A DNA stretch of 64,000 nt from an uncultured Clostridia bacterium (GCA_947630745.1 CANRIT010000005.1:2403-66402); one strand, 5' to 3'; positions 3,285-63,390 are shown, numbered from the stretch's first letter. Numbers and translations are program-made. The notes: a model not told the origin generated them from the sequence alone.

Positions 3285-5939
3285 TTAGTCGCCCGTACAT
3301 GTATATATATAATATTCATCATTAGACGAACAAGCAAAGGGTTCATTTTCGTCTTCTCGATATAAAAATTTATTAATATTTCTAGATCCAGCTGATTTTT
3401 TAACATAAATTTTGTTCCCAATTACAAGTTCATAATTATCTATAGCTATCGCACGAAATACTTCATTTCCCAATATAGTAATATTCCCCTTAAAGTTAAA
3501 TACTTTACTACCTAAACTTTTTACACTTGCTGGAATTGTTAACATATCAACTCTTTCTTGTCGTTCAATTACAAATGCCCCGCCCTTTATCCTTGTTGTA
3601 CCATCTTGAAGAGTAATTGTACTTTTATAACTTTCCAAACCACAAGCAATCAATTCATCATTATATCTATAATAGATAACCCCATCAATAGTTTCTATTT
3701 GACCTTTATCATTTTCGTCTGATAATACAACTGCAGCGTAACCATAAAGTCCATTATTTGTATCTTGTTTTAAATCTATTTGTGATTTGTTAATTACTTC
3801 AATAAGTTCATTGCAATCTGCAAACGCATTCGAACCTATGCTTTTTAAATTTTGATTTAAAGTCACGCTAGTTATACTGCTATGTTCAAACGCATCCTGA
3901 TTAATCTCTGTAGTTTTATCTGATAAAACGATCTCGGTTTTTTGCGGGTCTGCAAGTCCCGCAGCAATATAGTTGTCACCATCATCATAATAATAAATTC
4001 CGTCTTCTATTGTTAATTTGCTTTGAGTTTCATCGGAAATTACTTGCTTTGCGTACTTAGCAACGCTGCCGTTGTCATTATTTCCTGGCGTCAATTGCAA
4101 TTCAGATTTATTTACTACTTCTATTAATCGACCACAATTGTCAAAAGCATCACTTACAATTTTTTTAACATTTTTTGGTATAGTTACTTTTATAAACCCT
4201 GCAAATCTAAATGCCATATTGCCAATTGATTGTAAGTTGCAATCATCTTCCACATAAATACTTGTTAAATTATAACAATCGTAAAATGAGAAGTGTCCAA
4301 TTGATTCTACATTTTTACCTATCTTTACGCTAGTTATATCGTTATTATAATAGAAAGCATAATCATTAATTTTTGTAACATCGTCTGGGATTACTAAATC
4401 ACCTTTTACTTGTTGTCCATTTATGTATAAATCCACCCCATGAGGCCCAAACGATTGTTCAAGACTTACTTTATTATCCTTCATTATAGAAGATTCACAC
4501 CATTCTTTTAATGTTCCAGTATAATTAATTTTAGCTAAATCATAAAATGTACCAGTATGTTTACAATTTTTACCAAAAGTTAAACTTGTAATTTCATAAT
4601 ATGAAAATGCATTGTATTCAATTTCAGTTACTGGTAGACCCATGTACGTGTCTGGGATAATTAATTCTGTGGAATCCATGCCTTCCTTAAAGCCGGTTAC
4701 AATATAGCCATCATTTGTGTCATTCATTTTAAAGGTAAGATTTGTTTGGATTATTTCTTCAAAATCAATGGTCAAGTTGCCTTCTACTGTAAGATTAATT
4801 TCTTCACTTGGTTCAGTTTCTGAATAATCTTCGCCATTTATTTTAAAGGTTACTAGGTCGGCGTTATCGCTTAGGGTATAGGAGATTTTTAGTTCATCGC
4901 CATAATGAATTTCTGTTTGGGCGGTTATATCAGTGTAAGTTTCACCTTGTTTTAATTCTACTTTTACATGCGATTGGTCTTCAGCATCAATTGTTAATGT
5001 ATATTCGCGTGGGGATGATGTGAAGTCTGCACGGACATAGAGATTTGCAGTAATTGGAGTTGAGAAATCAAAATATTGTTTTTCTTCACCTATTTGTTGA
5101 TTATCTTGGTCAACTATAAGCCAGCCGGCAAAGGAAAATTGTTCTGCAACTGTAGATTCTTTTTGTGGGTTTTCTACTGTTATGCTATTATTGTATTGTA
5201 CAGATTGAGATGTTTGTTCCACTCCGTCAAAGTCAAAGAAGTGTACGATAAAGGTTTGGATTTGTTCTTCATAGTGAAGAGTAATGTCTTTATCTTCCGC
5301 TGTTTTGTTATCTGCCACAATTTTGTAGATTGGCAAACCAGCTTCTGTATATTCTTCAGTAAACTCAGCACCAGTTATTGAGAATGTGCTGTCATAACCA
5401 GTTTTTGTGGTTAATTTAACTGCAAATTTGTCGCCATGATGAAGTGGTTGAGTAGTGTCTAGTTTTTCACCAGATAGGTTTTGAATTTCGATATTGTCAA
5501 AATCTGTCGCATTTGTAAATACATAATTAATAATTATATATTTTAAGTATACAGTTGTGCCTTTTGTTATCTTAGTGTCAAGCGAAAGCAAATCTTCTAA
5601 GCCTTCGTCAGCATAGAAACCAGCAAAATAATAGCCATCCCTGTTTGGTGCTTGGATATCACCTATGGTTGAACCTTTTTTTAGTTTGAGTGTTTGGTTA
5701 GATGATAAATCTTCACCAACAGCATGGATTTCAACTTGGAAATCTTGATGATTGGTGTAATAAATTACTGCTGGAATGGTAAGCGTAGTGGCTGCGAGTA
5801 ATGCTGATGCAACTACTATTGCTACCTTTTTGCCAGTGTTCTTTTCTTTCTGCTCCTTTACTGGCTTGTTAAGCATTTGTTGTTCATTTGTTGTAAGATT
5901 TTTCTTTTGTCCGCCTATTGCGGTATTTTTGGTTGGCAT
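3285..5939 (-). CDS. Membrane-anchored surface protein with Listeria-Bacteroides-type repeats and BspA-type leucine-rich repeats
   Basis: 884 aa. Lys-rich N-terminus followed by one TM helix (VAIVVASALLAATTLTIPAVIYY, about nt 5757-5825). GYYFAGFY and FSFAGWL motifs. The C-terminal half (about 3300-4670) consists of I-P-x-x-V-x-x-I-G-x-x-A-F-x-x-C-x-x-L units (LRR_5-like). The N-terminal 130 aa are paralogous to the 3336-aa protein at 50495-60505. AAGGAG RBS. Confidence 0.85.
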   Translation of the reverse strand: MPTKNTAIGGQKKNLTTNEQQMLNKPVKEQKEKNTGKKVAIVVASALLAATTLTIPAVIYYTNHQDFQVEIHAVGEDLSSNQTLKLKKGSTIGDIQAPNRDGYYFAGFYADEGLEDLLSLDTKITKGTTVYLKYIIINYVFTNATDFDNIEIQNLSGEKLDTTQPLHHGDKFAVKLTTKTGYDSTFSITGAEFTEEYTEAGLPIYKIVADNKTAEDKDITLHYEEQIQTFIVHFFDFDGVEQTSQSVQYNNSITVENPQKESTVAEQFSFAGWLIVDQDNQQIGEEKQYFDFSTPITANLYVRADFTSSPREYTLTIDAEDQSHVKVELKQGETYTDITAQTEIHYGDELKISYTLSDNADLVTFKINGEDYSETEPSEEINLTVEGNLTIDFEEIIQTNLTFKMNDTNDGYIVTGFKEGMDSTELIIPDTYMGLPVTEIEYNAFSYYEITSLTFGKNCKHTGTFYDLAKINYTGTLKEWCESSIMKDNKVSLEQSFGPHGVDLYINGQQVKGDLVIPDDVTKINDYAFYYNNDITSVKIGKNVESIGHFSFYDCYNLTSIYVEDDCNLQSIGNMAFRFAGFIKVTIPKNVKKIVSDAFDNCGRLIEVVNKSELQLTPGNNDNGSVAKYAKQVISDETQSKLTIEDGIYYYDDGDNYIAAGLADPQKTEIVLSDKTTEINQDAFEHSSITSVTLNQNLKSIGSNAFADCNELIEVINKSQIDLKQDTNNGLYGYAAVVLSDENDKGQIETIDGVIYYRYNDELIACGLESYKSTITLQDGTTRIKGGAFVIERQERVDMLTIPASVKSLGSKVFNFKGNITILGNEVFRAIAIDNYELVIGNKIYVKKSAGSRNINKFLYREDENEPFACSSNDEYYIYTCTGD

Positions 5940-8333: not shown

Positions 8334-8366
8334 ATATTTTCCTTAATACATAGTATGAAAAAACCG

Positions 8367-8386
8367 CCCGTTTTGCTTAGGACGGG
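8367..8386 (-). terminator. Weak hairpin / possible attenuator between ftsW and murA
   Basis: cccgt (8367-8371) pairs with acggg (8382-8386) around a 10-nt loop. On the minus strand it is followed by cgg and then T6. Short stem, so low confidence. Confidence 0.3.
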
Positions 8387-8387
8387 A

Positions 8388-9533
8388 TTAAATTTTGTAC
8401 TTTTTGCTTGACGGCTTTGGGGTGGCAAATTTTAGGGTAAGCGACTCGTTGTTGGTTTTTTTATCCACATTGATGACCACACCTATTGCGGACAAAAACA
8501 CAAAGAGTGAGGTGCTGCCCGCGCTTATAAACGGAAGAGGCAGCCCGGTTGGCGGAATTGAGCCAGTTACCACGGCGATGTTTAAAATAACTTGTATGCT
8601 TATTATTGCGCCTATGCCAAAGCACAAAAAGGCGGAAAATTTGTTGTTTGCGCGCATGCCAACCTTAAATATATACACTATAAGCACAAAGAAAACCGCC
8701 ACCAGCATAATACAGCCCATAAAGCCCAATTCTTCCGCTATTATGCTGAAAATGAAGTCGGATTCGCTAAACGGCAAAAATAGTTCGGCTTGGCGACTGT
8801 TGAAAAGCCCCACTCCCCACACCCCGCCACTGCCAATGGCGTAAAGCGACTGAATAAGCTGATAACCTTCATCAAGCGGGTTTGCCCACGGGTTTAAAAA
8901 GGCTACAATGCGGTTTAGCCTATAAGGTTCAATTAAAATAAGCGCAACCACAAGCGCAATTGCTGGCACAATCATAATTGCAAACACTTTAAGCCGCATG
9001 CCACCAATAAACAGCATAAATATTAGAGTTAACGCCACGCACATGGTGATTGACATGTTTGGCTCTAACATAATAAGCAAGCAGTACAGCCCGCCAAAAA
9101 TAAGCGTTAGCAAAATGTGCTTTGGCTTGCAAAGTTTGTCGCCGTCAGCAAGGTAGCCGGCAAGGAAAAACACTAAACAAAACTTGGCGATTTCGCTTGG
9201 CTGGATGGTGAAACTTCCCACGCCTATCCATCTGGTTGCGCCGTAGCTGGTGCGGCTTAACCCGGGCACAAACACCAAGGCAAGCATAATTAAGCCAACA
9301 AAATAAAACACCCAATAAAACTTTTTGTACACGCGGTGATTTATAAAGCTGGTTATAGTTAGCCCCGCAAAACCAATAACCACACCTATTATCTGCTTTT
9401 TTAAATAGAAAAACTGGTCGCCATAATTAACCAAGGCGGAATACTTGCTTGCGCTGTACACCATAACGCAGCCAAAAACGGCAAGCAGTAGTGTGCAAAA
9501 CAAGATTACAAGGCTATTTTGCTTTTGACGCAT
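8388..9533 (-). CDS. ftsW: SEDS-family peptidoglycan glycosyltransferase FtsW/SpoVE
   Basis: 381 aa polytopic membrane protein with SEDS-like motifs (QPSEIAKF, GSGGVWGVGLFNS, PFISAGSTS). Located between murD and murA. Confidence 0.9.
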   Translation of the reverse strand: MRQKQNSLVILFCTLLLAVFGCVMVYSASKYSALVNYGDQFFYLKKQIIGVVIGFAGLTITSFINHRVYKKFYWVFYFVGLIMLALVFVPGLSRTSYGATRWIGVGSFTIQPSEIAKFCLVFFLAGYLADGDKLCKPKHILLTLIFGGLYCLLIMLEPNMSITMCVALTLIFMLFIGGMRLKVFAIMIVPAIALVVALILIEPYRLNRIVAFLNPWANPLDEGYQLIQSLYAIGSGGVWGVGLFNSRQAELFLPFSESDFIFSIIAEELGFMGCIMLVAVFFVLIVYIFKVGMRANNKFSAFLCFGIGAIISIQVILNIAVVTGSIPPTGLPLPFISAGSTSLFVFLSAIGVVINVDKKTNNESLTLKFATPKPSSKKYKI

Positions 9534-10863: not shown

Positions 10864-11856
10864 TTACAAAAGGTAAAAAATAATTGTTATTACGCTTGTT
10901 ATTACGGTTATTGTGCTGTAAAGGTAAACAATTTTTGGCTCGGACAAGTTGCTTAGTTGCAAATGATGGTGAAAGGGCGCCATTTTAAACAGCCGCTTGT
11001 GTTTTAGCTTAAACACCGCAACTTGCAAAATAACCGATATTGCGCTAAACACAAAGCAAAAGCCCAAAATTGGGATTATTAATGGCTGGCCAACAAGGCA
11101 AGCGGAAGATGCGATATATCCGCCCAAGCAAAGCGAGCCAACATCCCCCATAAAAATTGACGCCTTGCTTGTGTTGAAAAATAAAAACCCCATAATTGCG
11201 CCAATAAACAGCATGTTAAGTTGATTGATGTTGTATAGGTTTGTTATGGCTTGTCCGGTTTCGCCCGCAAGGTAGAGTTTGTTTGACACAAGCGCACAGA
11301 TGATTGAAAACGCCACAAGGTAGACAATTGTAACCACGCCCGCAAGCGCATCCAACCCATCGGTTAAATTTACGCTGTTTGTGCAAGCGATAACCACAAA
11401 AATAACAAGCGGGATAACAAAAAATTTTAGGTCGATTGTTTTGTAAGTAAACGGAACAAACACTTTGCCGCCAACTGTTAAAAAGATAAAAATTGCAAAC
11501 ACAAGCGCAATACCAAACTGACCAATAATTTTTTGATATGGGCGCAAACCTAGGTTTTGCTTGTACTTGATTTTTAAAAAATCGTCCATAAAACCAAGCA
11601 CGCCCAAAAAGGCTGCAACTAGATATGCAGTAAACCACTGCCAATTAAACTTGATAAAAATTAGTGCTAGTGGTAGTGTAGATAGTATAAATAATACCCC
11701 ACCCATAGTTGTTGTACCATTTTTGTCTTTGTGGTTTGTTACATAGTTAAGTATTGTTTGATTTACGCTTAGTTTGGTTAGCACCCGCTTGACTGCTGGC
11801 ATTAAGGCAGTTGACAAAACAAAACTTACAACAAATATAATTAACAGATTTATCAT
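10864..11856 (-). CDS. mraY: Phospho-N-acetylmuramoyl-pentapeptide transferase MraY
   Basis: 330 aa membrane protein with motifs GFMDDFLKI, NLTDGLDALAG, FMGDVGSL and APFHHHL. ATGA overlap with the murE stop. Confidence 0.95.
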   Translation of the reverse strand: MINLLIIFVVSFVLSTALMPAVKRVLTKLSVNQTILNYVTNHKDKNGTTTMGGVLFILSTLPLALIFIKFNWQWFTAYLVAAFLGVLGFMDDFLKIKYKQNLGLRPYQKIIGQFGIALVFAIFIFLTVGGKVFVPFTYKTIDLKFFVIPLVIFVVIACTNSVNLTDGLDALAGVVTIVYLVAFSIICALVSNKLYLAGETGQAITNLYNINQLNMLFIGAIMGFLFFNTSKASIFMGDVGSLCLGGYIASSACLVGQPLIIPILGFCFVFSAISVILQVAVFKLKHKRLFKMAPFHHHLQLSNLSEPKIVYLYSTITVITSVITIIFYLL

Positions 11857-13310
11857 AATTTTATTTTGCCTTTTAGTGAATATTTAAAATAGTTGTCCAC
11901 GCAATCGTAGTCGCTAAATGGATACTTTACCCCTTTAACCTCTTGATAACTTTCCGCCCCCTTGCCCAAAATTGCCACCACATCATTTGGTTTGGCAATG
12001 GTCAGCGCGTATTCAATTGCTGAACGCCTATCCGTTATGCGCACCATGTTTTTTGCCTCGTTGTCCTTTGTTATGTCGTCAATAATAAAGTCTGGATTTT
12101 CGTCACGCGGATTGTCGCTGGTCACAATCACATAATCGCTGTTTTTGCACGCAATCTGCCCCATTTCCGCCCGCTTGGTTTTGTCGCGATTCCCGCCGCA
12201 GCCAAACACGGTAATTATGTTTTTTACTGGCAGTTGTTTTAATGCGTTAAGCACGTTTTTTATCCCGTCTGGTGTGTGGGCGTAATCGATAAGCACATTA
12301 AAATCCGCATCAAGTTTAAGCATATTAAATCTGCCCGGAATGAATATTTGGTACGATTTTAATATCGACAAAATATCGATTATATCAATACCCAACTTAA
12401 CCAAGCACGCAATTGCGGTTAAGCAGTTGTAAACATTGTAGTCGCCCATCAAATTGGTGGAGCAAGCGTAGGTTTTTTGCTGGTATTCAAACTTAAACTC
12501 GCTGCCGCGTATGGTGTGAGTTATGTTCATCAGCCTAAAATCTGCGTCATGCCCGATTGTTGAAAGCGGAATTAAAGAATTTTTTACTAGTTCCTTACAA
12601 TTTGCTCCATCCATATTTAGCACGCCCGCTTTGGCATGGCGGGGAGAAAACAGACTATATTTGCATTTTATATAGTTTTCCATAGTGATAAAAAAATCTA
12701 GATGGTCTTTTGTTATGTTGGTTAGCGCCACCATGTCGAACATGATGTAGTCGATTTTGTTAAGTGCGATGGCGTGAGCGGAAATTTCCATTATGCAGTA
12801 TTCGCAGCCGTTATCGTCCATTTCGCGGATGAGTTTGTGCAAGACAATTGGGTCGGGAGTGGTAAGCATGGGCGGCAAAAGCAGATTACCAATGTATATC
12901 CCTTCTGTGCCAATAAGCCCTACTCTATGCCCAAGATTGGTTAAAACTTCGCGCAAAAGATAGCTTGTGGTGGTTTTGCCATTTGTGCCAGTTATGCCAA
13001 TAAATTTCATTTTGGTTTTGTAAGTGGAATAAAAAACTTGGCAAATATAGCTCATTGCCGTGCGGACATTTTCAACACATATCTGGGTAACGGGGATGTC
13101 TAAAAAGCGTTCAACCACCAAACAAACCGCGCCGTTTGACACACTTTCCGCAGCAAAATCGTGCCCATCGTAGCGCATACCCTTAATGGCGAAATAGATT
13201 GCACTGCTAACCTTTTGCTTGCTGTTGGTGGTAAGGCTGTCTATATCCACATCTTTGTAGTATTTTATGCCAATAAATTTCATGTTTGAAATAATGTCAT
13301 ACAATTTCAT
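11853..13310 (-). CDS. murE: UDP-MurNAc-tripeptide synthetase MurE (DNPR motif, probably meso-DAP adding)
   Basis: 485 aa. Motifs GITGTNGKTTTSYLL, GCGGNRDKTKR and TSDNPRDENP. GGGG RBS. Confidence 0.92.
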   Translation of the reverse strand: MKLYDIISNMKFIGIKYYKDVDIDSLTTNSKQKVSSAIYFAIKGMRYDGHDFAAESVSNGAVCLVVERFLDIPVTQICVENVRTAMSYICQVFYSTYKTKMKFIGITGTNGKTTTSYLLREVLTNLGHRVGLIGTEGIYIGNLLLPPMLTTPDPIVLHKLIREMDDNGCEYCIMEISAHAIALNKIDYIMFDMVALTNITKDHLDFFITMENYIKCKYSLFSPRHAKAGVLNMDGANCKELVKNSLIPLSTIGHDADFRLMNITHTIRGSEFKFEYQQKTYACSTNLMGDYNVYNCLTAIACLVKLGIDIIDILSILKSYQIFIPGRFNMLKLDADFNVLIDYAHTPDGIKNVLNALKQLPVKNIITVFGCGGNRDKTKRAEMGQIACKNSDYVIVTSDNPRDENPDFIIDDITKDNEAKNMVRITDRRSAIEYALTIAKPNDVVAILGKGAESYQEVKGVKYPFSDYDCVDNYFKYSLKGKIKL

Positions 13311-13466
13311 AATTTTCCCCTTTTGGGTAATCTATCACACTTATATGCCGTTTTAACCAGCCTGCCAAAAATAGACAAAATGATATTTTTGTTGCATTTT
13401 TTATGCATTTTGTGCAAATTATCCTTATTTTTTGTGTTTTTTTTGACAAGTGGGACCAGAACGCGC

Positions 13467-13560
13467 AACGGGCGGGGCTAAAGCGGGCAAACGTGTTGCC
13501 CGCTAGCTAGGGGCAGCGCCCCTAGCGGCAAACGCAGTTTGCCTTAGCCCCGCCCCCGTT
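13467..13560. repeat. GC-rich four-way-junction palindromic element, copy 1
   Basis: Outer stem gggcggggctaa (13470-13481) pairs with ttagccccgccc (13544-13555). It encloses three hairpins: 13483-13503 (8 bp), 13507-13525 (8 bp) and 13527-13543 (7 bp). Begins 8 nt after the ftsI stop. No U-tract on either strand. Confidence 0.85.
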
Positions 13561-13568
13561 TTGCCTAA

Positions 13569-15473
13569 TCATCCCGTTATAAGTTGAATAACCTCACCAA
13601 GATAAAGCATAGTCCCCGCTGGCGGAAGTTGCGCAATAATAATCTCTCCATCCGTATCGCACACAAATTCTAGCCCAATCGCTTTAAGTTCAGCCGCCGC
13701 TTCTTCAATTGTCTTACCCACCAAATTTGGCATTTCAATCGTTGGTTTAAGGGTAAGTTGACTTTCATCATCTGGCCTTATCGCCTTTGTTTCAAAAATC
13801 GCTTGCAAAATGCGCTGTCCAACCGGTTTTGCAACCACTCCACCATAATATGCTCCCGCGCTTGGCTCGTTTACACAGATTAAGATGATGTATTTTGGGT
13901 TATATGTTGGGTAAGTTCCCACAAAACTGGAAATATATTTTCCGCTGGCAATTTTTCCGTCAGCGCCATATTTTTGCGCCGTTCCCGTTTTTCCGCCGAC
14001 CGAATAGCCAGCCACAAAACTCATTTTGCCATCGCTGTTTACATTGTTAAATAGCAGATTGTTTATAGTTTCAATTGTGTCCGCTTTTAAATTTATATCG
14101 GTTTTTGCGTTTGAGTTTGCGTATAAGGTTTTTCCGTCAAAGGTTATTTTACTTAACAAATGTGGCACAAAATTCTGCCCGCCCGTAATTTTCCCGTACA
14201 CGGTTGCAAGTTGAAGTTGGGTAACCGCCACCGCGTGCCCAAAACCAATACGCGCCAAGTCCACTGTGCGCACCCCTTCTTTTGGCATAATAATTCCCGC
14301 GCTTTCGCTGTAAATATCCACCCCAGTTTTTTCGCCAAGTCCAAAATAGTTAAGGTATTGATAATATTTTTCCACTCCCAGCCTTAACGCCAAATTAACA
14401 AACACGCAGTTGCAGCTGTTTTTAAATGCTTCGCTAAGTGTTTGGCTGCCATGACCAATTGTGCGCCAACATTTTATTGTTTCGCCGTCAACCGTGGTTC
14501 GCCCGCCGCAATAAAACTGGTCGTCAACATCCACAAGCCCTTCGTTTAAAGCTGCGGCAAGGGTTACAAGTTTAAAGGTGCTGCCCGGTTCGTAAACATC
14601 CACAACCGACACATTTTTTGTTTGGTTTTGAAGTTTGGTTAGGTCATCGCGCGGCACGGCATTCAAGTCAAAATTGGGCAAAGTTGCCATCGCCTTAATT
14701 CCGCCAGTTTGCGCATCCAAAATTATCCCACTAACCGACAGTGCGTTGTTTTCGTTGTATGCGGTTAAAAGTTCGCGCTCCATTATCGACTGCATTTGAA
14801 CATCAATTGTGGTATGTAAATCCGCACCCGCCACGCTTGGCAGATAATAGCTTAGCGAATTATCTATCTCTTTGCCTTGCGCGTTGGTTTGAGTAAGGCT
14901 TTTACCGTCAATTCCTTTAAGGTATTTGTCGTAATAAAGTTCAAGCCCCGCCTGCCCGATGTTGTCAATTGTGCAATAGCCCAAAACTTGTGTTAAAAGG
15001 TTGGAATATGGGTAAACGCGCGCCACATTTTGGCTAAGATACACTCCCGCATACTCAGTAAGCGATAGTGCCAATTTTTCGTCCACCTGCATTTTTATAA
15101 GTATCTCGCTAAGGCTTTTGTTGGTTACCTTGCTGTAAACCTTGTTGTAATCCAAGTTTAGTTTGTCCGACAAAACAAGGGCAAGTTCGCTTGCGTTTTT
15201 AACATTTCGCGCGCGCACATAAACATCATAAGTGGTTATTGTGGTTGCCAAGCGCACCCCGTTTGCGTCCAAAATCTCGCCGCGTTTGCTTGAAAGGGGT
15301 AAATCTCTAAGCCACTCTTCTGCCGCCAACGCTTGAAGATGCCGCCCGTCAATTATTTGCAAATAGAATATGCGTGAAATTAGCGCCACAAAAATGGTTA
15401 AAACAATTAAAATTGTTGCAATAAATCGCCTTTCCAACGAATATATATTGTAAAAAGTTTTAAATTTCCGCAT
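13569..15473 (-). CDS. ftsI: Class B penicillin-binding protein (FtsI/PBP2B/SpoVD-like) with C-terminal PASTA domain
   Basis: 634 aa. N-terminal TM helix. Transpeptidase motifs STFK, S-C-N and KTGT. PASTA-like tail PNLVGKTIEEAAAELKAIGLEF. No SD; a TATAAT lies 4 nt before the ATG. Confidence 0.92.
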   Translation of the reverse strand: MRKFKTFYNIYSLERRFIATILIVLTIFVALISRIFYLQIIDGRHLQALAAEEWLRDLPLSSKRGEILDANGVRLATTITTYDVYVRARNVKNASELALVLSDKLNLDYNKVYSKVTNKSLSEILIKMQVDEKLALSLTEYAGVYLSQNVARVYPYSNLLTQVLGYCTIDNIGQAGLELYYDKYLKGIDGKSLTQTNAQGKEIDNSLSYYLPSVAGADLHTTIDVQMQSIMERELLTAYNENNALSVSGIILDAQTGGIKAMATLPNFDLNAVPRDDLTKLQNQTKNVSVVDVYEPGSTFKLVTLAAALNEGLVDVDDQFYCGGRTTVDGETIKCWRTIGHGSQTLSEAFKNSCNCVFVNLALRLGVEKYYQYLNYFGLGEKTGVDIYSESAGIIMPKEGVRTVDLARIGFGHAVAVTQLQLATVYGKITGGQNFVPHLLSKITFDGKTLYANSNAKTDINLKADTIETINNLLFNNVNSDGKMSFVAGYSVGGKTGTAQKYGADGKIASGKYISSFVGTYPTYNPKYIILICVNEPSAGAYYGGVVAKPVGQRILQAIFETKAIRPDDESQLTLKPTIEMPNLVGKTIEEAAAELKAIGLEFVCDTDGEIIIAQLPPAGTMLYLGEVIQLITG

Positions 15474-17129: not shown

Positions 17130-17825
17130 TTACTCTATTTCCACCAGCGTGTTTTTAACCGCATCGCAACTTGTTAAATAGTATTTTATGCCATTTATTT
17201 CGTTATACAGCATTTTGGGGTTGATATAGCCGTGCAAGTGGGCAAACACCACTTTGTAAACGCCGTTTTCTTTTAGAATGCGGGTGTATTCGCTTGGCTC
17301 GATTTTGTTGTTAAAAGGCGGATAATGAGTAATAAATATAATCTTTTCGTTGTTGGTTTGCAGCTTTTTTGCCGCTTGAAGGGACAGTTCTAGGCGGATG
17401 ACTTCGCGGGCGTAGAGTTTGCGATTTTCTTCCGTATCTTGCTTGCCTTGCGGAATAAGCCAGCCGCGATTGCCACAAAAAATGTAGTCACCAATTTTTA
17501 TTGCATCATTTTGAAGGGCATAGCAGTTTTCGGGCAGAATTTCACGCACCTTACTAAGGCTGCTCCACCAATAGTCATGATTGCCGCGGATAATAATTTT
17601 TGTGCCGGGCAGGTCTTTTATAAAATCAAAATCTGGAACAACTTGGTTAAGTTTCATCGCCCAACTGTAATCGCCCGCCAATATAACAACATCTTCTGGG
17701 CTTACTTTTTGTTTCCAATCCGCTGCCACCTTTGTTTCATGACCATGCCAAACCGGACCGAAAATATCCATGGGTTTGCTGTTGTTGATGTCCAAATGTA
17801 AATCGCTTATTGAGTAGATTTTCAA
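17130..17825 (-). CDS. Calcineurin-like metallophosphoesterase (TTG start)
   Basis: 231 aa. Motifs SDLHLD, GDYSW, GNHDYWW, THYPP and AHLHG. AAGGAG lies 7 nt before the TTG. First gene of the rsmH operon, where mraZ is usually found. Confidence 0.85.
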   Translation of the reverse strand: MKIYSISDLHLDINNSKPMDIFGPVWHGHETKVAADWKQKVSPEDVVILAGDYSWAMKLNQVVPDFDFIKDLPGTKIIIRGNHDYWWSSLSKVREILPENCYALQNDAIKIGDYIFCGNRGWLIPQGKQDTEENRKLYAREVIRLELSLQAAKKLQTNNEKIIFITHYPPFNNKIEPSEYTRILKENGVYKVVFAHLHGYINPKMLYNEINGIKYYLTSCDAVKNTLVEIE

Positions 17826-17843: not shown

Positions 17844-17872
17844 ATTTTACCTTAATTTAAACAAAATGTCAA
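17844..17872 (-). promoter_or_regulatory. Sigma-A type promoter of the metallophosphoesterase-rsmH (dcw) operon
   Basis: Minus strand reads TTGACA (17867-17872), a 17-nt spacer, then TAAAAT (17844-17849). Confidence 0.65.
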
Positions 17873-17959: not shown

Positions 17960-18054
17960 ACGGGGGCGGGGCTAGAATGCGCGGAGCGCATTGGGCGGCG
18001 GCACGCCGCCGCCCCGCACAAAACGCGCAGCGTTTTGTGCCTAGCCCCGCCCGT
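17960..18054. repeat. GC-rich four-way-junction palindromic element, copy 2
   Basis: Outer stem gggcggggctag (17964-17975) pairs with ctagccccgccc (18041-18052). It encloses hairpins 17976-17992 (7 bp), 17993-18014 (9 bp) and 18016-18040 (10-11 bp). An extra hairpin gtgtgtgc/gcacacac follows at 18053-18070. Confidence 0.85.
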
Positions 18055-18127
18055 GTGTGCTTGCACACACAAAAGCGCAGTAACCTTTTTTTACAGTGCA
18101 TCATACAAATTTATAGGAGGAAAAAAG

Positions 18128-18793
18128 ATGTCTTTTTACACAGATGCAAGGCCGGGCATTTATCCTGGGCAAACCACCAATGCTATGAATGGCCTATGCG
18201 AAAGAATTTGCATTCAAACCACCAAAGTGTTTGATGCGTGCATGTTACAAGCACAAATTGAGGATTATGCTCTTACACTAACCAATTTCAACCCAGCAGA
18301 TCCCGCCACTCCACTAACCTTTGTAAGTGGAAATTCAACCACCGGTCCAGCAACGGTAACCGGCCTAACCATTACGCGATTTGATGACCGACCAAACTTT
18401 GCGCGCGTGCAAGCAACAATCAACATTCCAGTTGTTGTAACCTACACTGACGCAAACAATGTTGCTGGCACAGCAACTGGCACAATTGCTGTCAATCAAG
18501 ATGTGATTATGTATGTGCCACAGCCATCGCTTACCCCAATTGATGTTATTGCATTTGGCAGCGCGGTAATTTCGCAAGGTACATACAATCCTACTACTGG
18601 CGGCTTTACAATAAGCGCGTGCGTAACCGCAATACTTAAAGTGGTTGCCGTGGTTGATGTGCTTGTGCCAAGTTATGGCTATTGCCCAATTCCGCCATGC
18701 ACTCCTTACACTGGAGAAGAAGCTTGCCCAGGTGTGTTTGAAATGCCACTGTATCCAACCGCAGTCAGCCCACAATCCACCAACGCAAGATAG
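18128..18793 (+). CDS. Hypothetical Thr/Pro/Val-rich, Cys-containing protein (beta-rich; possible structural protein)
   Basis: 221 aa from the ATG at 18128, with AGGAGG (18115-18120) 7 nt upstream. The ORF-track start at 17957 runs through the GC-rich repeat and is unlikely. N-terminal LCERICIQTTKVFDAC; C-terminal YGYCPIPPCTPYTGEEACPG. Visibly more GC-rich than its neighbours. Confidence 0.75.
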   Translation: MSFYTDARPGIYPGQTTNAMNGLCERICIQTTKVFDACMLQAQIEDYALTLTNFNPADPATPLTFVSGNSTTGPATVTGLTITRFDDRPNFARVQATINIPVVVTYTDANNVAGTATGTIAVNQDVIMYVPQPSLTPIDVIAFGSAVISQGTYNPTTGGFTISACVTAILKVVAVVDVLVPSYGYCPIPPCTPYTGEEACPGVFEMPLYPTAVSPQSTNAR

Positions 18794-23271: not shown

Positions 23272-23293
23272 AAAAAAGCACAACTAAGTGCTT
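23272..23293 (-). terminator. Terminator of HA-sigma gene 1
   Basis: aagcac pairs with gtgctt (loop aactaa) and overlaps the stop. T-run on the minus strand. Confidence 0.65.
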
Positions 23294-25403
23294 AAATCAT
23301 CCATTCATCTTTTTGAAGATGTTGTTTTAGTTTTTCTAAAATTTTTTGCAAAACTTTTTCCACTTTTTGTGGTGTGGTGTTAAATTTTTCAGCAAGCTGG
23401 TTTGCTGAGTATGCCGTGCCACTTTTGCTAAAGCCAAAATGCAAACAAATTAACTTATATTCATCGCGCGTTAAAATTTGCTTTGCTCGCTTTAACAATT
23501 GCTCATTGAACGCGCTATCTTCAACCAACTCGTCCGGGCGATATCTGTCGTCCGGAATTGTTTCTTCAACTGTGATGTCATCAAAACCTTGGACTTCTTC
23601 TTGCAAACTTGTAATTTGATTTGCTTTGATTATAAAATGCTTGATTTCATAGTTTATGGTTTTGCCAACATATGCTTTTAATTTAGTTTCTATATTTGTG
23701 GTTGTGTTATCTAATGCGGTGTTTAAAGCATCATAGCCCTGGCCAATCAAATCAGACACATTTGAAGAATTTTTATAACTAAACGCTATTTTATGCACCA
23801 GCGGCATATACTTTTGTAAGTAATCATTTCTTGCGGTTAAGTCGCCATTTAGCATGCGCTTTATCATTGGCTCATTTGGCTTGTCTTTATAATAATCTTG
23901 TGTGTTGAAAACAAAATCTAATTCGTTTAATTTTTCCATTTGCGCATCGGTTAATTGAAGTCTGCGATTGCGAATGTTTCTTACAAAAAAACCTAATTCG
24001 TAATTATCAACAACATAATCATACTCAACAAAGCAACTATTAAATTGCTGCTTATATTCAACCAATTTCTTGTAGAATATTTCAAAATCGAATTTTGCAA
24101 GTTTTGCACTAACCTTTACATTCCAATTAAACCCGATTTTATTTAATTTTGCCCTCTGCTCGTCCGACAAAATTATACCACAATCACGAATAGTTCTTAC
24201 TTTTTGACCCAGTTTGTAGCCGTCAGGGCAAACATATGTTTGTTTAACATTAACATCTTTATATTCTTCTTTATATTCTTCCAAATGTCTATAAAATACA
24301 TCAAATTTAAATGTTCCGCCCTCGCGTTTAGAATCCCAATTAAACTCTATTTTATTTAATACTTCTTTTTGCTCGTTTGTCAATTTTGTGCGGCCCAATC
24401 GAATGTTTTTCATTTTTACTCCAAGTATATATCCGTCTGGACAAACATATCTAATTGGAATACGCGCATCGCTATATGTTTTTCTATATTCAATCAAATG
24501 TTTACGAAATTCATTAAAATCAAAAATTTTTGCATTCCATACAAAATCCATTTCATTTAACATTGATTTTTGTTGCTCGGTCAACCTTATTCCGCCTTCG
24601 CGAATGGTCATAATTTTTTGACCCAGTTTGTATCCATCTGGGCAAACATACGCTTGTCTAACATCAATATTTTTATTAACTTTTTTATATTCTTGCAAAT
24701 AATTATAAAATTCATCAAAGTTGAATCTTACAATTGGTTGTACATCCCAAATAAAGCCTAATTCAACCAATTTTGCTTTTTGCTGGTTGGTTAGTTTTAT
24801 CACGCCTTGACGAATTCTTTTAAATTTGTAACCGAGATTATATCCGTCTTTACAAATATATGATGATGCAGCATATCCATTATTGTTGACTTTTATGTAT
24901 TCAAGCAAACGATTATAAAAATCATCAAAATCAAATTTAATATATGGCCTTCCATCATAAGCAAAGCCCAGTTCTTCCAATTTTGCTTTTTGTTGGTTTG
25001 TTAAACTTATTATGCCAATACGAATATTTTTTATTTTTTGACCAAGATTGTATCCGTCCTGACAAATATAGGATATTGAAATATCAACATCTTTGTTAAC
25101 TTTTTTATATTCAAGCAAACGATTATAAAATTCATCAAAATCAAATTTAATAAATGACCTTGAATCACAAACAAGTCCAACTTCTTGCAATTTTGCTTTT
25201 TGCTGTTCGGTTAGTTTTATGCGGCCCGAACGAATGCGCCTTATTTTACCCCCAAGAGTATATCCATTAGGACAGACATATGATGTTGAAATGTTAACAT
25301 TTTTAAACTCATCTTTGTAGTTTTGTAAATAGGAAAGAAACTCTTCAAAAATGAAGGGCTGGCGTATTATGGCTTTTTGAATGAGATTTTCCTTTTCCGA
25401 CAT
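23292..25403 (-). CDS. Sigma-70-family-like protein with 7 N-terminal helicase-associated (HA) domain repeats
   Basis: 703 aa. The last ~202 aa (about nt 23295-23900) contain a region-2-like segment ARNDYLQKYMPLVHKIAFSY...DLIGQGYDALNTALD and a region-4 HTH LTRDEYKLICLHFGF...YSANQLAEKFNTTPQKVEKVLQKILEKLK. Upstream are seven ~67-aa repeats of the form FDFDEFY..L.EYK....Y.C.DGY.LG.K...IR.G...L...Q...L.ELGF.W. Confidence 0.85.
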   Translation of the reverse strand: MSEKENLIQKAIIRQPFIFEEFLSYLQNYKDEFKNVNISTSYVCPNGYTLGGKIRRIRSGRIKLTEQQKAKLQEVGLVCDSRSFIKFDFDEFYNRLLEYKKVNKDVDISISYICQDGYNLGQKIKNIRIGIISLTNQQKAKLEELGFAYDGRPYIKFDFDDFYNRLLEYIKVNNNGYAASSYICKDGYNLGYKFKRIRQGVIKLTNQQKAKLVELGFIWDVQPIVRFNFDEFYNYLQEYKKVNKNIDVRQAYVCPDGYKLGQKIMTIREGGIRLTEQQKSMLNEMDFVWNAKIFDFNEFRKHLIEYRKTYSDARIPIRYVCPDGYILGVKMKNIRLGRTKLTNEQKEVLNKIEFNWDSKREGGTFKFDVFYRHLEEYKEEYKDVNVKQTYVCPDGYKLGQKVRTIRDCGIILSDEQRAKLNKIGFNWNVKVSAKLAKFDFEIFYKKLVEYKQQFNSCFVEYDYVVDNYELGFFVRNIRNRRLQLTDAQMEKLNELDFVFNTQDYYKDKPNEPMIKRMLNGDLTARNDYLQKYMPLVHKIAFSYKNSSNVSDLIGQGYDALNTALDNTTTNIETKLKAYVGKTINYEIKHFIIKANQITSLQEEVQGFDDITVEETIPDDRYRPDELVEDSAFNEQLLKRAKQILTRDEYKLICLHFGFSKSGTAYSANQLAEKFNTTPQKVEKVLQKILEKLKQHLQKDEWMI

Positions 25404-25411
25404 ATATTTTA

Positions 25412-25439
25412 ATTATATCATTAAAATCAAATTTGTCAA
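25412..25439 (-). promoter_or_regulatory. Consensus promoter of HA-sigma gene 1 (leaderless geometry)
   Basis: TTGACA (25434-25439), a 16-nt spacer ending in TGa, then TATAAT (25412-25417). Only 8 nt separate it from the ATG at 25403. No SD. Confidence 0.7.
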
Positions 25440-25465
25440 GTTTAAATCGACATTTTGGTGGAAAG

Positions 25466-25488
25466 AAAAAAGCACAACTAGGTGCTTT
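25466..25488 (-). terminator. Terminator of HA-sigma gene 2
   Basis: aaagcac pairs with gtgcttt (loop aactag). T-run on the minus strand. Confidence 0.65.
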
Positions 25489-27362
25489 TAAATTAACCAC
25501 TCATCTTTTTGGAGATTTGATTTTAGTTTTTCTAAAATTTTTTGCAAATGTTTTTCAATTTTTTGTGGTGTGGTGTTAAATTTTTTAGCAAGTTGGTCGA
25601 TTGTGTACATTGTGCCGTGTTTATTAAAACCAAAATACAAACACATCAATTTAAACTCGTCATTGCTTAAAATTTGCCTTGCCTTCTTTTGCAATTGCTC
25701 GCTAAATGCCCTATCTTCCACCAGCCAATCTGGACGATAAGTGTTGTCTTCAATTGTATCTTGAAACACCACACCTTCACAGCCAAGCACATCGTCTTGC
25801 ATGCTTTTGATACTTAGAATTTGTTTTATATGATTTAGTATTAGCCCCCTAATTGTGTTTATTATATATCGCTTTTGACCAGTTTCGTCAATATTTTTTA
25901 AATTATCCAACGCAAGGTCCAGCCCGTCATAGCCAACGCCAAGCAAATCCGAATAATTTGTAAGTTGCCAATAATTTGCTGCCACCATGTTGACCATTGG
26001 CAAATATCTATTAAGGTAATCATTTCTGGCAGTAATATCGCCGTTTAGCATGCGCTTTATCATAGGCTCATCTGGCTTGTCTTTATATAAATCCTGCGTG
26101 TTAAACACAAAGCCCAAACCAACAAGCTGTTCAATTTGATTTTCAGTTAATCTTATCCTTCTGTTGCGAATGTTTCTTACATAAAAGCCCAATTCGTAGT
26201 TGCTTAAAACATAGTCAAATTCGACAAAACAATTGCCATTTTGCGCTTTATATTCAACCAATTGGTTATAAAAATGTTTAAAATTGAAATTTTTAATCTT
26301 GGTCGCGCTTGACACATTCCAAACAAAATCAAGCTCATCCAATTTTGCCTTTTGCTGGTCGTTTATTTTAATATGTCTGGTGCGAATGCCAGCCATTTTT
26401 TCGCCAAGTTTATATCCGTTTTCACACACATAGCGGTTAGGAACGATATTAGTTTTTCTTTTTTGCAAATATTCAAGCAAATTTTGATAGAATTCATCAA
26501 AATTGAACGACCTTGCATCCCAAATAAAGCCCATCTCACCCAATTTGGCTTTTTGTTGGTCGGTTAACCTTATTACGCCAGCGCGAATGTTTGTGATTTT
26601 TTGACCTAGTTTATAATTATCTTTACATACATAACTTTGCCCAACATTAACATCGTTGTGTGTTTCTTTATATTTGACTAGATGCTGATAGAATGTGTCA
26701 AAATCAAAAACCCTTTTTGCGTTCCAAACAAAATTTAATTCATTCAACTTTGCTTTTTGTTGTTCGGTCAACTTTATCCCGCCCGAGCGTATTCTGCACA
26801 CTTTTTGACCAAGTTTGTAGCCGTCATCGCATATATACAACTGTTTAACATTAACATCACCGCATTTTTGTTGGTATTTAAGCAAATACTGATAGAATTT
26901 ATCAAAATCAAATGGCAAAACTCTCCAAACAAAACTAATTTCGTCTAATCTTGCCCTCTGCTGCGAGGATAACTTTAAGTTGCCCGCACGAACATTGCAT
27001 ATTGTGTCCCCCAGCCGGTAGCCGTCCGAACAGCGATATGACCTTTTAATATTAAGGTCGCCATGTCTAAGTTTGTAGTTAAGCAAACGGTTGTAAAATT
27101 TTTCAAAATCAAAAACTCTTTTTGCATTCCAAACAAAACCAATTTCGTTTAGTTTTGCAATTTGCTGGTTGTTTAGATTTATCTCGCCCGAACGAATATT
27201 GTTAATCTTTTGCCCTAGCTTATACCCGTCTTTGCAGATGTAGTCAGTTGGAATGTTGGCGCTTTTATTCACGGCTTTATACTTATTGAAATGTGAAACA
27301 AACTCTTCAAATTTGAAGCGCAGATGAGTTTTTGCCTTTTTAACTAGGTTTTCCCTTTCCAT
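25488..27362 (-). CDS. Sigma-70-family-like protein with 6 N-terminal HA domain repeats
   Basis: 624 aa. Same build as 23292-25403. C-terminal ARNDYLNRYLPMVNMVAANY...DLLGVGYDGLDLALD and LSNDEFKLMCLYFGF...YTIDQLAKKFNTTPQKIEKHLQKILEKLK. Confidence 0.85.
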   Translation of the reverse strand: MERENLVKKAKTHLRFKFEEFVSHFNKYKAVNKSANIPTDYICKDGYKLGQKINNIRSGEINLNNQQIAKLNEIGFVWNAKRVFDFEKFYNRLLNYKLRHGDLNIKRSYRCSDGYRLGDTICNVRAGNLKLSSQQRARLDEISFVWRVLPFDFDKFYQYLLKYQQKCGDVNVKQLYICDDGYKLGQKVCRIRSGGIKLTEQQKAKLNELNFVWNAKRVFDFDTFYQHLVKYKETHNDVNVGQSYVCKDNYKLGQKITNIRAGVIRLTDQQKAKLGEMGFIWDARSFNFDEFYQNLLEYLQKRKTNIVPNRYVCENGYKLGEKMAGIRTRHIKINDQQKAKLDELDFVWNVSSATKIKNFNFKHFYNQLVEYKAQNGNCFVEFDYVLSNYELGFYVRNIRNRRIRLTENQIEQLVGLGFVFNTQDLYKDKPDEPMIKRMLNGDITARNDYLNRYLPMVNMVAANYWQLTNYSDLLGVGYDGLDLALDNLKNIDETGQKRYIINTIRGLILNHIKQILSIKSMQDDVLGCEGVVFQDTIEDNTYRPDWLVEDRAFSEQLQKKARQILSNDEFKLMCLYFGFNKHGTMYTIDQLAKKFNTTPQKIEKHLQKILEKLKSNLQKDEWLI

Positions 27363-42847: not shown

Positions 42848-44347
42848 TTAATTTAGGATGAACCATTCTTCTTTTGGCATGTTTTGTTTTAGCTTGTAAA
42901 ATATTCTTTTAAGCGCGCTTTCCACCTTTTTGGGCGTGGTATTATATTTTTGTGCAAGTTGGCTGATTGAATACTCTGTTGCATCGTAGTTAAAGCCAAA
43001 ATACAGGCTTATCAGCTTATATTCGCCCGCGCTTAAAAGTTGCTTTGCCTTAGTAATTAGTTGCTTGTTAAAGGTTTTGTTTTCCACTTCTATGTCTGGG
43101 CGGAAAGTTTCATCCGCCATTGTGTCTTCAATTGTCAGGCGTTCGCTATCTGGCAAAATGTCTGACAGGCTGGAAATTCTGCTTTTTTCTTTAATAAACC
43201 TAAAGATGTTGCCGTTTATAACCTTGGAAACATACACATAAAGTTGCTTTTCTTTTAAATAATTCACCTTATTAAGCGCGTACTCCACGCTGTCGTAGCC
43301 AATGTTAATTAGATCGGTAAGGTTTGCAAATTCGCTATACTTTTTTGCAACAACTTCAATTAGCGGCATAAATTTGTTTATGTAATAATTGCGAGCCAAA
43401 CTATCGCCGTTAATCATCCGCCTAATAAGTGGCACATTTGGTTTGTTTTGGTAGAAATCACTTGTGTCAAAAACGAAGCCCAAACTTTGCAGTTTTTCGA
43501 TTTGGTTTTGTGTTAATTTGATGCAATGATTGCGGATGTTGCGCACAAAAAATCCAAGTCGGTAGCCGTCAATTGAATGCTCGTAATCGACAAAACAGTT
43601 GCCGCAACCAGCTTTAAATTCAGCAAGTTTGTTGTAAAAAACATCAAAATCAAACTGCTTAATTAAGTGGGAAGTGTTCTTTTTAATCCTCCAAACAAAA
43701 CCAATCAAAGCCAATTCATCCAGCTGCTGTTTTGTAAGTTTTGCGCGGCGAGTGCGGATGTAATGCACTTTGTCGCCAAGCGGATAGCCGTCTAAGCAAA
43801 CATAATATGTTGGTACTTTTGTGTTTTTAAACTGCTGCTTATACTGGCGCAGATGAAAACAAAAATCGTCAAAATCATAACTGCGTGCTTTGAAAATAAA
43901 GCCTATTTTGATTAGTTCCGCCCTTTGCTGGTCGGAAATTTTTAAAAGGTTTTGGCGGATGTTGTGAACTTTTGCGCCAAGCCGATAGCCGTCCGAGCAA
44001 ATATACCCTTTTGTGGTGTTGCCCGGCAGCGGAACTTTAAGGTCGCCATACGTATTTTTATAGTCCACCAAATGCTGCATAAACTCTTTAAAATCAAACG
44101 ACTTTGCATCCCAAACAAAGCCAAGCCTATTAAGCGTGTCAATTTGCTGGTCGTTAAGGTCAATGCGACGGGCGCGGATTCTTTTTATTTTTTCACCCAA
44201 TTTGTAGCCGTCAGCGCAAACATATTTTTGCGGTATGTTTAAATTATTATTCTCTTCTTGATATTTTTGCAGATAAAAAACGAACTCTTTAAAATCAAAG
44301 CGTTTGCGTAAAATTGAACGTTTAATTAGGTTTTCCTTGCCTTTCAT
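42848..44347 (-). CDS. Sigma-70-family-like protein with 4 N-terminal HA domain repeats
   Basis: 499 aa. C-terminal ARNYYINKFMPLIEVVAKKY...DLINIGYDSVEYALN and LSAGEYKLISLYFGF...YSISQLAQKYNTTPKKVESALKRIFYKLK. Confidence 0.85.
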   Translation of the reverse strand: MKGKENLIKRSILRKRFDFKEFVFYLQKYQEENNNLNIPQKYVCADGYKLGEKIKRIRARRIDLNDQQIDTLNRLGFVWDAKSFDFKEFMQHLVDYKNTYGDLKVPLPGNTTKGYICSDGYRLGAKVHNIRQNLLKISDQQRAELIKIGFIFKARSYDFDDFCFHLRQYKQQFKNTKVPTYYVCLDGYPLGDKVHYIRTRRAKLTKQQLDELALIGFVWRIKKNTSHLIKQFDFDVFYNKLAEFKAGCGNCFVDYEHSIDGYRLGFFVRNIRNHCIKLTQNQIEKLQSLGFVFDTSDFYQNKPNVPLIRRMINGDSLARNYYINKFMPLIEVVAKKYSEFANLTDLINIGYDSVEYALNKVNYLKEKQLYVYVSKVINGNIFRFIKEKSRISSLSDILPDSERLTIEDTMADETFRPDIEVENKTFNKQLITKAKQLLSAGEYKLISLYFGFNYDATEYSISQLAQKYNTTPKKVESALKRIFYKLKQNMPKEEWFILN

Positions 44348-44353
44348 ACAAAA

Positions 44354-44381
44354 ATTATATCACAAATATTTTATTTGTCAA
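44354..44381 (-). promoter_or_regulatory. Consensus promoter of HA-sigma gene 3 (leaderless geometry)
   Basis: TTGACA (44376-44381), a 16-nt spacer ending in TGa, then TATAAT (44354-44359). Exactly 6 nt to the ATG at 44347. Confidence 0.7.
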
Positions 44382-44399
44382 TACAAAAAATATTAAAGT

Positions 44400-63389: not shown

Positions 63390-63390
63390 T

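Follow-up and report, generated by a model that had tools for sequence, protein, structure and literature searches.

We describe a small family of GC-rich, folded palindromic elements, two copies of which (copies 1 and 2) lie in a 64-kb stretch of DNA from an uncultured Clostridia bacterium (GCA_947630745.1 CANRIT010000005.1:2403-66402; this whole stretch is referred to as the window). The elements have one design in common, a cloverleaf in which an outer inverted repeat of 9-14 bp surrounds three short, almost perfect palindromes. We lean toward the view that these are non-coding, nested DNA palindromes which are inserted at permissive sites and live as DNA palindromes, and the best reading is that the family behaves like selfish palindromic DNA, in the manner of repetitive extragenic palindromic (REP) sequences or of mitochondrial GC clusters, and not like a dedicated RNA regulator. 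That view starts from what can be seen directly, i.e., the architecture of the elements, their status as insertions, their patchy distribution, their repeated occurrence at two sites across unrelated clades, their strand symmetry, and a conservation above the neutral level.

Two nested palindromes in the window

The two copies are made up as follows.

13467-13558: copy 1, GC-rich nested palindrome, by sequence and fold
13470-13481 with 13544-13555: copy 1 outer stem, gggcggggctaa paired with ttagccccgccc, 12 bp
13483-13503: copy 1 hairpin 1, gcgggcaa-acgtg-ttgcccgc (loop acgtg)
13507-13525: copy 1 hairpin 2, ctaggggc-agc-gcccctag (loop agc)
13527-13543: copy 1 hairpin 3, ggcaaac-gca-gtttgcc (loop gca)
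17960-18054: copy 2, same design, by sequence and fold
17964-17975 with 18041-18052: copy 2 outer stem, 12 bp
17976-17992: copy 2 hairpin 1, aatgcgc-gga-gcgcatt (loop gga)
17993-18014: copy 2 hairpin 2, gggcggcggc-ac-gccgccgccc (centre ac)
18016-18040: copy 2 hairpin 3, gcacaaaacgc-gca-gcgttttgtgc (loop gca)

A preliminary description of this DNA, made from the sequence alone, had proposed a 12-bp outer stem closing three perfect hairpins in both copies, and the sequence, RNAfold, and shuffled controls agree on that architecture. RNAfold predicts a four-way junction for each copy, at -72.1 kcal/mol for copy 1 (z = -7.2) and -86.2 kcal/mol for copy 2 (z = -7.9), values equaled by 0 of 200 shuffles in either case, and 0 of 1000 dinucleotide shuffles of each copy folded into an outer stem with three hairpins. 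Folding copy 1 under DNA parameters yields the identical structure at -45 kcal/mol. Only 1-3 bases are left unpaired at the junctions of copy 1, none of its 37 pairs is G-U, and weak additional pairing stretches its fold to about 13460-13565. The elements are 69-74% GC, compared with 38% window-wide, and copy 1 in particular is 69% GC against 38-43% in the surrounding region. Apart from copies 1 and 2, the window has no GC island of at least 55 nt, and when its plus strand was folded from end to end in sliding segments with RNAfold, no other highly paired cloverleaf appeared (the two copies are 0.86-0.88 paired). A candidate third element at 8355-8464 turned out to be only a weak terminator (z = +0.8).

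The outer stems of copies 1 and 2 agree at 11 of 12 base pairs, while the inner sequences differ. As a miniature inverted-repeat transposable element (MITE) would require, the outer stem with its 11 common base pairs could be a terminal inverted repeat, but the inner sequence differs between copies and copy number is low. The preliminary description was right that copy 1 is not a simple copy of a high-copy miniature transposon. Its observation that the fold stays constant while the inner sequence varies is true between the two copies and also between species. What did not stand is a family of two members, as further members are present in related genomes (designated below by L-numbers, which denote loci from those genomes). 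No U-tract follows either copy on the transcribed strand, as the preliminary description had it for copy 1 (whose sense strand continues GUUGCGCGUUCUGG), and a terminator scan calls neither copy; copy 1 is therefore not a terminator. Copy 2 has the identical sequence in L190, another sample of the species. Exact-protein look-ups for further samples of the window species retrieved two short contigs in which copy 2 is identical, and a look-up of this kind with MurE retrieved nothing.

Short stretches resembling parts of the elements occur elsewhere in the window. The weak terminator 3' of ftsW (8364-8376, minus strand) contains GCAAAACGGGCGG, which corresponds to the flank plus the start of copy 1 (GCAAAACGGGGGC, 13552-13564); two such matches were observed, versus 0.26 expected by chance. 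In an AT-rich spacer at 62180-62380, a terminator-like hairpin (ATACCC-TGC-GGGGTAT) is followed by a T-run and, past the hairpin, by three direct repeats of ATACCCC-N-CCCCTAT spaced about 55 nt apart (e.g., TATACCCCCGCCCCTAT), the CCCCGCCCC core of which resembles the outer stem of the elements.

Related elements in other gut Clostridia

The relatives of the window's FtsI belong to Candidatus Onthoplasma and to further Clostridia assembled from animal and human gut metagenomes, and the source of the window is a Candidatus Onthoplasma-like Christensenellales bacterium with a reduced, AT-rich genome. Onthoplasma is placed in family UBA1242 of the Christensenellales, and its genomes measure about 0.8-0.9 Mb (PMC12306168). 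The closest relative of the window is L017, with an FtsI identity of 85%. Among 45 orthologous loci examined for GC islands, only L017 and L057 had them; the elements of L030 and L026 were found by a structure-aware search.

L017:2966-3068: element at the copy-2 site, between the genes for a 221-aa protein and a phosphoesterase
L017:7906-7987: orthologue of copy 1 (c1'), beginning at the stop codon of ftsI and truncated where the contig ends
L191:398-487: cloverleaf of 50% GC, 3' of the ackA terminator, with outer stem GCAAGGCAT/ATGCCTTGC and three hairpins

L017 thus has elements at both orthologous sites. Related elements also occupy the copy-2 site in L030 (2407-2489) and L026, where the element exactly fills the gap between a divergent TTGACA box and the TTCACAC box of the 221-aa gene; in L023, the sister of L026, only a decayed 3' remnant is found. 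More distant are L057, whose FtsI is 61% identical to that of the window, and its 91-92% relatives L212-L214 and L252. The cloverleaves of L057 and L212 are located at the ftsI stop (E1), at the murE stop (E2), and after a gene of the FtsW/RodA family (E3), all in sense orientation and with sequences very unlike the window type. Hairpin 1 of these L057-type elements has a conserved 9-nt loop, CCTTGCACC, and a one-base bulge in its 5' arm in four of the five complete elements; the bulge is not present in L212 E2, nor in the truncated L252 E1. After mraY, L212 has a single GGGGGCG...CGCCCCC hairpin (4786-4833) and L057 a hairpin cluster of about 300 nt (4470-4780), which also begins with GGGGG and includes GCCCACTTGT-GCA-ACAAGTGGGC; these may be further divergent family members or composites. 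Downstream of the window's own ackA (46529-47737), no element like that of L191 is found.

The elements are confined to the window and L017, to L030 and L026, and to L057, L212, and L252, which in a neighbor-joining tree of FtsI are three distinct clades, set apart from one another by many element-free lineages. Most relatives have short, unstructured, AT-rich spacers at these positions, even at 74-88% identity in either flanking protein. Element-free ftsI-murE spacers are typically about 75 nt long (40 relatives) versus 258 nt in the window, and the copy-2 site of relatives with an 84-88% identical 221-aa protein is an AT-rich spacer of 114-147 nt. The 3' end of ftsI and the gap between the two -35 boxes beside the 221-aa gene are each occupied in two clades. 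The same two sites being used in unrelated clades points to either a target preference or transfer through homologous recombination between the flanking genes, which are conserved. Two FtsI variants of greater length (661 and 682 aa), which we suspected of running into an element, do not do so. Two independent short-read assemblies end inside cloverleaves (L017:7906-7987 and L252:3305-3353), and assembled genomes therefore probably undercount the elements.

Insertion at reading-frame ends and between divergent promoters

The surroundings of copies 1 and 2 contain the following features.

11853-13310, minus strand: murE, first gene downstream of copy 1 (Mur ligase domains in orthologues)
13364-13381, minus strand: motif CATTTTGTCTATTTTTGG upstream of murE, conserved in relatives
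13569-15473, minus strand: ftsI, PBP2B-type penicillin-binding protein with PASTA domain (Pfam PF03717, PF00905, PF03793)
17130-17825, minus strand: metallophosphoesterase gene, first of a unit continuing with rsmH, ftsL, and ftsI
17844-17872, minus strand: sigma-70-like promoter of that unit, TTGACA-17-TAAAAT, 11 of 12 consensus positions
18053-18070: small hairpin gtgtgtgc-tt-gcacacac adjoining copy 2
18128-18793, plus strand: conserved gene for a 221-aa protein, no Pfam family, with ribosome-binding site AGGAGG and terminator

Copy 1 lies in the 258-nt spacer between ftsI and murE, with the ftsI stop (TGA) located 8 nt before it on the minus strand. The preliminary description had placed the element directly after ftsI, which is correct on the minus strand only, since both ftsI and murE are minus-strand genes. 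Copy 2 lies between the divergent metallophosphoesterase and 221-aa genes, and therefore not 3' of any gene. The promoter region of the 221-aa gene begins just past copy 2, and the TTGACA-17-TAAAAT promoter, whose TTGACA box is kept in relatives, is about 90 nt away and directed away from the element.

When an element follows FtsI or MurE, it replaces the last 1-5 codons and the stop codon relative to element-free relatives. For instance, FtsI ends in LITN or LITY in relatives, compared with LITG in the window (last residue G) and LITA in L017; likewise, an FtsI ending VSEK in element-free relatives ends VSG with an element, and a MurE ending AQ ends AK. The replacement stop is usually a TAG placed directly against the G-run that opens the outer stem. 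This TAG-GGGG junction is also present in L030, where the TAG stops nothing, and L057 E3 and copy 1 of the window have a TAGGCAA...GGGGG junction in common, the TAG of E3 again stopping nothing. As judged by these sequence comparisons, the elements are insertions, and patchily distributed ones.

Signs of palindrome upkeep in DNA

The stems predicted for ten elements contain about 405 Watson-Crick pairs, against two G-U pairs at the most, and the folding energy is equal on both strands. Helices selected as RNA normally tolerate G-U pairs. The loops are mostly 2-5 nt long, the exception being the 9-nt loop of L057-type hairpin 1, and there is no enrichment of GNRA or UNCG loops. When the window is compared with L017 at both sites, two hairpins with identical stems have loops that are reverse complements of each other (TGC versus GCA), and such minute loop inversions are characteristic of DNA hairpins. 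The ends of the outer stem are asymmetric by 2 nt (G5 versus G3), an asymmetry which is conserved, although at the copy-2 site the window and L017 have it the opposite way round. In the remaining two hairpins of copy 2, the changes relative to L017 fall on both arms.

Exchange and duplication of arms can also be traced. The lower stem of E2 hairpin 1 is wholly different in L057 and L212, yet paired in both; the L212 version matches the neighboring E1, which argues for copying between elements. Next to copy 2, the right arm of the small hairpin at 18053-18070 is the 12-nt CACACAAAAGCG, a promoter segment of the 221-aa gene that is also found in L026, where the conserved TTCACAC -35-like box lies within it. 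Because this right arm is ancestral, being common to L026, the left arm is probably an inverted duplicate of the flanking promoter segment. Pair counts between close homologues gave seven double-sided changes in E2 and E3, with 1 of 500 shuffles reaching as many, which is a modest figure, and a single double-sided change for copy 2 versus L017; when the five window-type elements were aligned (MAFFT/RNAalifold), the arms proved unequal in length and sequence. Altogether, the near-zero G-U count, the loop inversions, the inverted duplication of a flank, and the exchange of modules bear out the earlier suggestion that a process making or keeping palindromes acts at the DNA level.

In parts of the elements, conservation is far from neutral. 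Between the window and L017, four-fold synonymous sites are 53-56% identical and the intergenic flanks cannot be aligned. In contrast, copy 2 is identical to its L017 counterpart at 24 of 24 positions of the outer stem and 22 of 22 positions of one hairpin, and the outer-stem sequence GGGCGGGGCTAG is kept between paralogues as well as between species, well above the neutral level. Such identity points to selection on these parts or to recent exchange between lineages. The decay of the L023 remnant after loss of its partner arm fits an upkeep that depends on an intact palindrome.

A possible life cycle and points that weigh against it

Read as mobile palindromic DNA, the elements would insert either at the ends of open reading frames (ORFs), with replacement of the last codons and the stop, or between back-to-back divergent promoters. 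They might spread by an as yet unnamed mobilizing activity or by homologous recombination of the conserved flanks. Symmetry of the arms could be kept by intrastrand template switching or templated correction, by selection for hairpins, or by both, and diversification would proceed through paired arm changes, loop flips, copying of modules, growth into the flanks, and loss by deletion. Within the dcw (cell-division/cell-wall) mRNA, copy 1 may form a four-way junction of about -69 kcal/mol that could stop 3' exonucleases or separate the expression of ftsI from that of murE. Copy 2, if active at all, would act as an untranscribed spacer or as cruciform DNA between divergent promoters.

Several observations count against such selfish DNA. 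The strong conservation at orthologous loci is not expected of inert selfish DNA and argues for some selected role or for recent interspecies exchange. In the L057 clade, all three elements follow consecutive dcw genes in sense orientation and have a strand-asymmetric hairpin, a sequence pattern that would fit a role as RNA or as a single strand. A Pfam search of 39 of the 44 window ORFs of at least 90 aa found no gene for a transposase, a REP-associated tyrosine transposase (RAYT), or an integrase, and no consistent target-site duplication could be defined. Finally, scans for the termini in 185,579 species-representative genomes, which do not include the window genome itself, recovered only the copies of L017 and L057 themselves (one complete each).

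The other terminus matches in the representative genomes were due to chance, unrelated palindromes, or coding sequence in GC-rich genomes. BLAST searches of phages and plasmids gave nothing meaningful, viral contigs searched with relaxed termini gave six matches, all unrelated, and among at least 120 matches listed in a metagenome scan, none resembled the element. A scan of viral sequences with the 17-mer AAGCCCTTGCACCGCTT from the L057-type loop retrieved 31 matches in a few related phage-contig families, which we take as chance; in one of these families, translated by eye, AAGCCCTTGCACCGCTT is the start of a gene for a helix-turn-helix (HTH) regulator. At gathering thresholds, Rfam had no match to the window elements or to L017, L030, L057, L191, and L212, so that the Rfam search proposed in the preliminary description identified no family for the window elements or these five related loci. 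In permissive mode, Rfam returned nothing for copy 1, and for copy 2 only chance matches far below threshold. Nor are the elements tRNAs: ARAGORN and Rfam find only two tRNAs in the window (63302-63464), and the window-type loops measure 2-5 nt, compared with the 7-nt loops and the D/T-loop architecture of a tRNA.

Alternative explanations

An unlikely alternative is that the elements are dedicated cis-acting RNAs, i.e., four-way junctions transcribed with the dcw operon that would serve as an exonuclease shield or as an RNase III or RNase Y processing site separating ftsI and murE expression. Copy 1, c1', E1, E2, and E3 are all 0-30 nt after stop codons inside dcw operons, folding energies range from -69 to -88 kcal/mol, and the lack of a U-tract speaks against a terminator. 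The uniformly sense E1-E3, with their conserved 9-nt loop and the 5'-arm bulge in four of five complete elements, are also in its favor, and the conserved promoter-like motif upstream of murE would suit separate regulation. A 3' stem-loop has reportedly been described as a stabilizer of the Bacillus subtilis spoVD transcript. In contrast, copy 2 and the elements of L017, L030, and L026 are flanked on both sides by -35 boxes of divergent promoters, which makes their transcription very unlikely, the L191 element is beyond the terminator of ackA, and most relatives, close ones included, are unstructured at these positions. The scarcity of G-U pairs (at most 2 of about 405) and the equal folding of both strands are atypical of helices selected as RNA. 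Moreover, when orientation is judged by homologous modules, copy 1 runs antisense to the dcw operon, while the L057-type elements are sense. As part of the dcw transcript, copy 1 may nonetheless act at the RNA level, and a REP-like effect is plausible, but any such role would be secondary to its nature as a DNA element. Such an effect cannot define the family, because elements of the copy-2 type are probably untranscribed and orientation with respect to transcription is not conserved; the REP-type 3' stabilizer or processing site suggested in the preliminary description is thus not the family's defining role, given that copy 2, L017, L030, and L026 are located between divergent promoters.

Somewhat less probable again is a host function exerted by the DNA itself, whereby extrusion of a cruciform or cloverleaf, or binding of a structure- or sequence-specific protein, would provide a supercoil sink or an insulator between transcription units such as those of back-to-back divergent promoters. 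The exact span of the L030/L026 element from TTGACA to TTCACAC would suit this, as would strand-symmetric perfect palindromes in AT-rich flanks, the GGGCGGGGCTAG outer stem conserved above neutral, and the conserved G5/G3 asymmetry of its ends. Yet extrusion and a binding protein are without direct evidence, extrusion is inefficient when arms are short and GC-rich, an AT spacer of 20-40 nt is enough for the same promoter pair in most relatives, and elements at ORF ends suit an insulator less neatly. About equally low we place the idea of a novel kind of structure-defined mobile DNA, or of the footprint of palindrome generation by template switching in reduced genomes. Mobile DNA of this kind would be moved or copied as a folded single-strand four-way junction carrying its own stop (TAG-GGGG), would target transiently single-stranded or supercoiled DNA (ORF ends in operons, the divergent-promoter gap), and would be recognized by a yet-unnamed structure-specific enzyme. 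We consider it very improbable that the elements are folded single-strand recombination sites, attC-like or IS200/IS605/REP-like, for a tyrosine recombinase or HUH enzyme whose gene would lie in another part of the genome. Conserved structure with variable sequence, a position flush with or overlapping the stop of the upstream ORF as in attC, additional G residues left unpaired where the outer stem ends on one side, and the AAC...GTT that flanks the outer stem of copy 1 would all agree with such a site. Against these stand the missing attC cores of copy 2, L017, L030, and the L057-type elements, an inconsistent GTAG/CGTC tag, a window with no cassette array and, among the 39 ORFs searched, no integrase or Y1 transposase gene, and flanks made up of core dcw genes whose order is conserved. 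We practically dismiss an artefact of assembly or a chimera: sequencing of GC-rich palindromes is difficult, and two assemblies from relatives do end inside elements, but copy 2 is identical in the independent sample L190, and related elements occur in independent assemblies of several projects (L017, L030, L026, L057, L212-L214, and L252).

Comparison with known systems

The preferred reading, selfish palindromic DNA, invites comparison with the REP sequences and bacterial interspersed mosaic elements (BIMEs) of Proteobacteria, which are mobilized by RAYT. Like our elements, they are extragenic GC-rich palindromes often found just 3' of genes in operons; they can act as mRNA 3' stabilizers, undergo gene conversion between copies, and form composites of several palindromes. 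REPs are single imperfect palindromes of 20-40 bp, present in hundreds of copies and mostly tagged with GTAG/CGTC (PMC3733652, PMC2817692). Here, in contrast, three perfect palindromes are nested in a fourth, the apparent copy number is very low, there is no consistent tag, no RAYT was seen in the window, and the host is a Firmicute with a reduced genome. The tag is absent from copy 1, L017, L030, and L212 E1 and E2, and its occurrence in L057 E1 (GTAG) and on the reverse strand of copy 2 (CGTC) is by chance. As for copy number, REPs typically exceed 100 per genome, and the 64 kb of the window hold two copies, a figure to be read with the breaking of assemblies at elements in mind.

A closer resemblance, one of behavior and not of ancestry, is to the GC clusters, double-hairpin elements (DHE), and repetitive hairpin-forming elements (RHE) of mitochondria, and the comparison is offered as an analogy only. 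In yeast (GC42), Allomyces (DHE), and sponges (RHE), these are GC-rich hairpin insertions located intergenically in small AT-rich genomes (PMC4478555, PMC2800124). They have substitutions concentrated in loops, preserved hairpins, merging and shuffling of modules, and a patchy presence in close relatives (PMC4478555, PMC2800124). All those traits are common to both, as is a mobilizing mechanism that is not known, and the window elements and their relatives accordingly behave as GC-rich hairpin insertions with conserved stems that are present or absent in an AT-rich genome. Unlike the elements described here, the mitochondrial ones are organellar, occur in many copies, consist of one or two hairpins, and form no closed four-way junction; yeast GC42 also duplicates an AG at its target, of which there is no sign here.

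The attC sites of integrons are alike in being defined by their fold, in lying at or over the stop of the upstream ORF, in having extrahelical bases near the base of the stem, and, in some cases, in having branched tips. The R''/R' cores, cassettes, and integrase of integrons were not found here, where the flanks are core genes; likewise, attC recombination uses the bottom strand, and both strands are equivalent in our elements. Of the cores RYYYAAC/GTTRRRY, copy 1 has only the approximate GCAAAAC/GTTGCGC, and copy 2, L017, L030, and the L057-type elements have none. The window contains no cassette array and, among the ORFs searched, no integron integrase, the neighbors being dcw genes in conserved order.

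Repeats known from other Firmicutes, such as pneumococcal BOX and RUP and Bacillus cereus bcr1, are also small, non-coding, and modular, have a stable structure, are located near gene ends, and are thought to influence the expression of neighboring genes. Unlike our elements, they match the AT content of their hosts, are present in tens to hundreds of copies, and have a sequence consensus, and some repeats of this type have terminal repeats with target duplications. None of them is known to be a GC-rich closed cloverleaf. The present family is set apart by its closed cloverleaf, a copy number that appears very low, elements that overlap stop codons, and a Firmicute host with a reduced genome.

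If this description is right, gut Clostridia with reduced genomes would carry a bacterial counterpart of the GC-rich hairpin elements of mitochondria. The family would then be a compact natural system for the creation, upkeep, and flipping of palindromes in bacterial chromosomes, and one in which tolerance of insertion at the ends of essential cell-division genes, and the effects on operon expression or promoter coupling, could be studied. As elements that break short-read assemblies, they would be systematically missing from metagenome-assembled genomes.

Neighboring genes and other features of the window

The window is core chromosome with nearly all genes on the minus strand, among them ftsZ, ftsA, ftsQ, murA, ftsW, murD, mraY, murE, ftsI, ftsL, rsmH, and plsX, as well as the genes for RNase J, SMC, ftsY, ffh, rnhB, ackA, and pta. 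The motif upstream of murE is 15-18 nt long, reads TTTTGTCT(T/A)ATTTTG or AATGTCTAATTTTGTC, and is located about 50-120 nt upstream of the gene in all lineages, element-bearing or not (L018-L061, L057, L212, L215, and L219). It may be an internal dcw promoter or operator.

The 221-aa protein (MSFYTDARPGIYPGQ...; orthologues P0001-P0120) is highly conserved, with more than 1600 homologues and no Pfam family. The boxes upstream of its gene, TTCACA-N15-17-GAATAnnATA, resemble a mother-cell sporulation promoter, and for this reason we suggest that it may be a spore-coat protein. Elsewhere in the window, four paralogous ORFs of 703, 624, 499, and 555 aa (23292-27362 and 42848-46089) are built of repeated "helicase-associated" HA domains (PF03457), and a single ORF of 3336 aa spans 50495-60505 on the minus strand.

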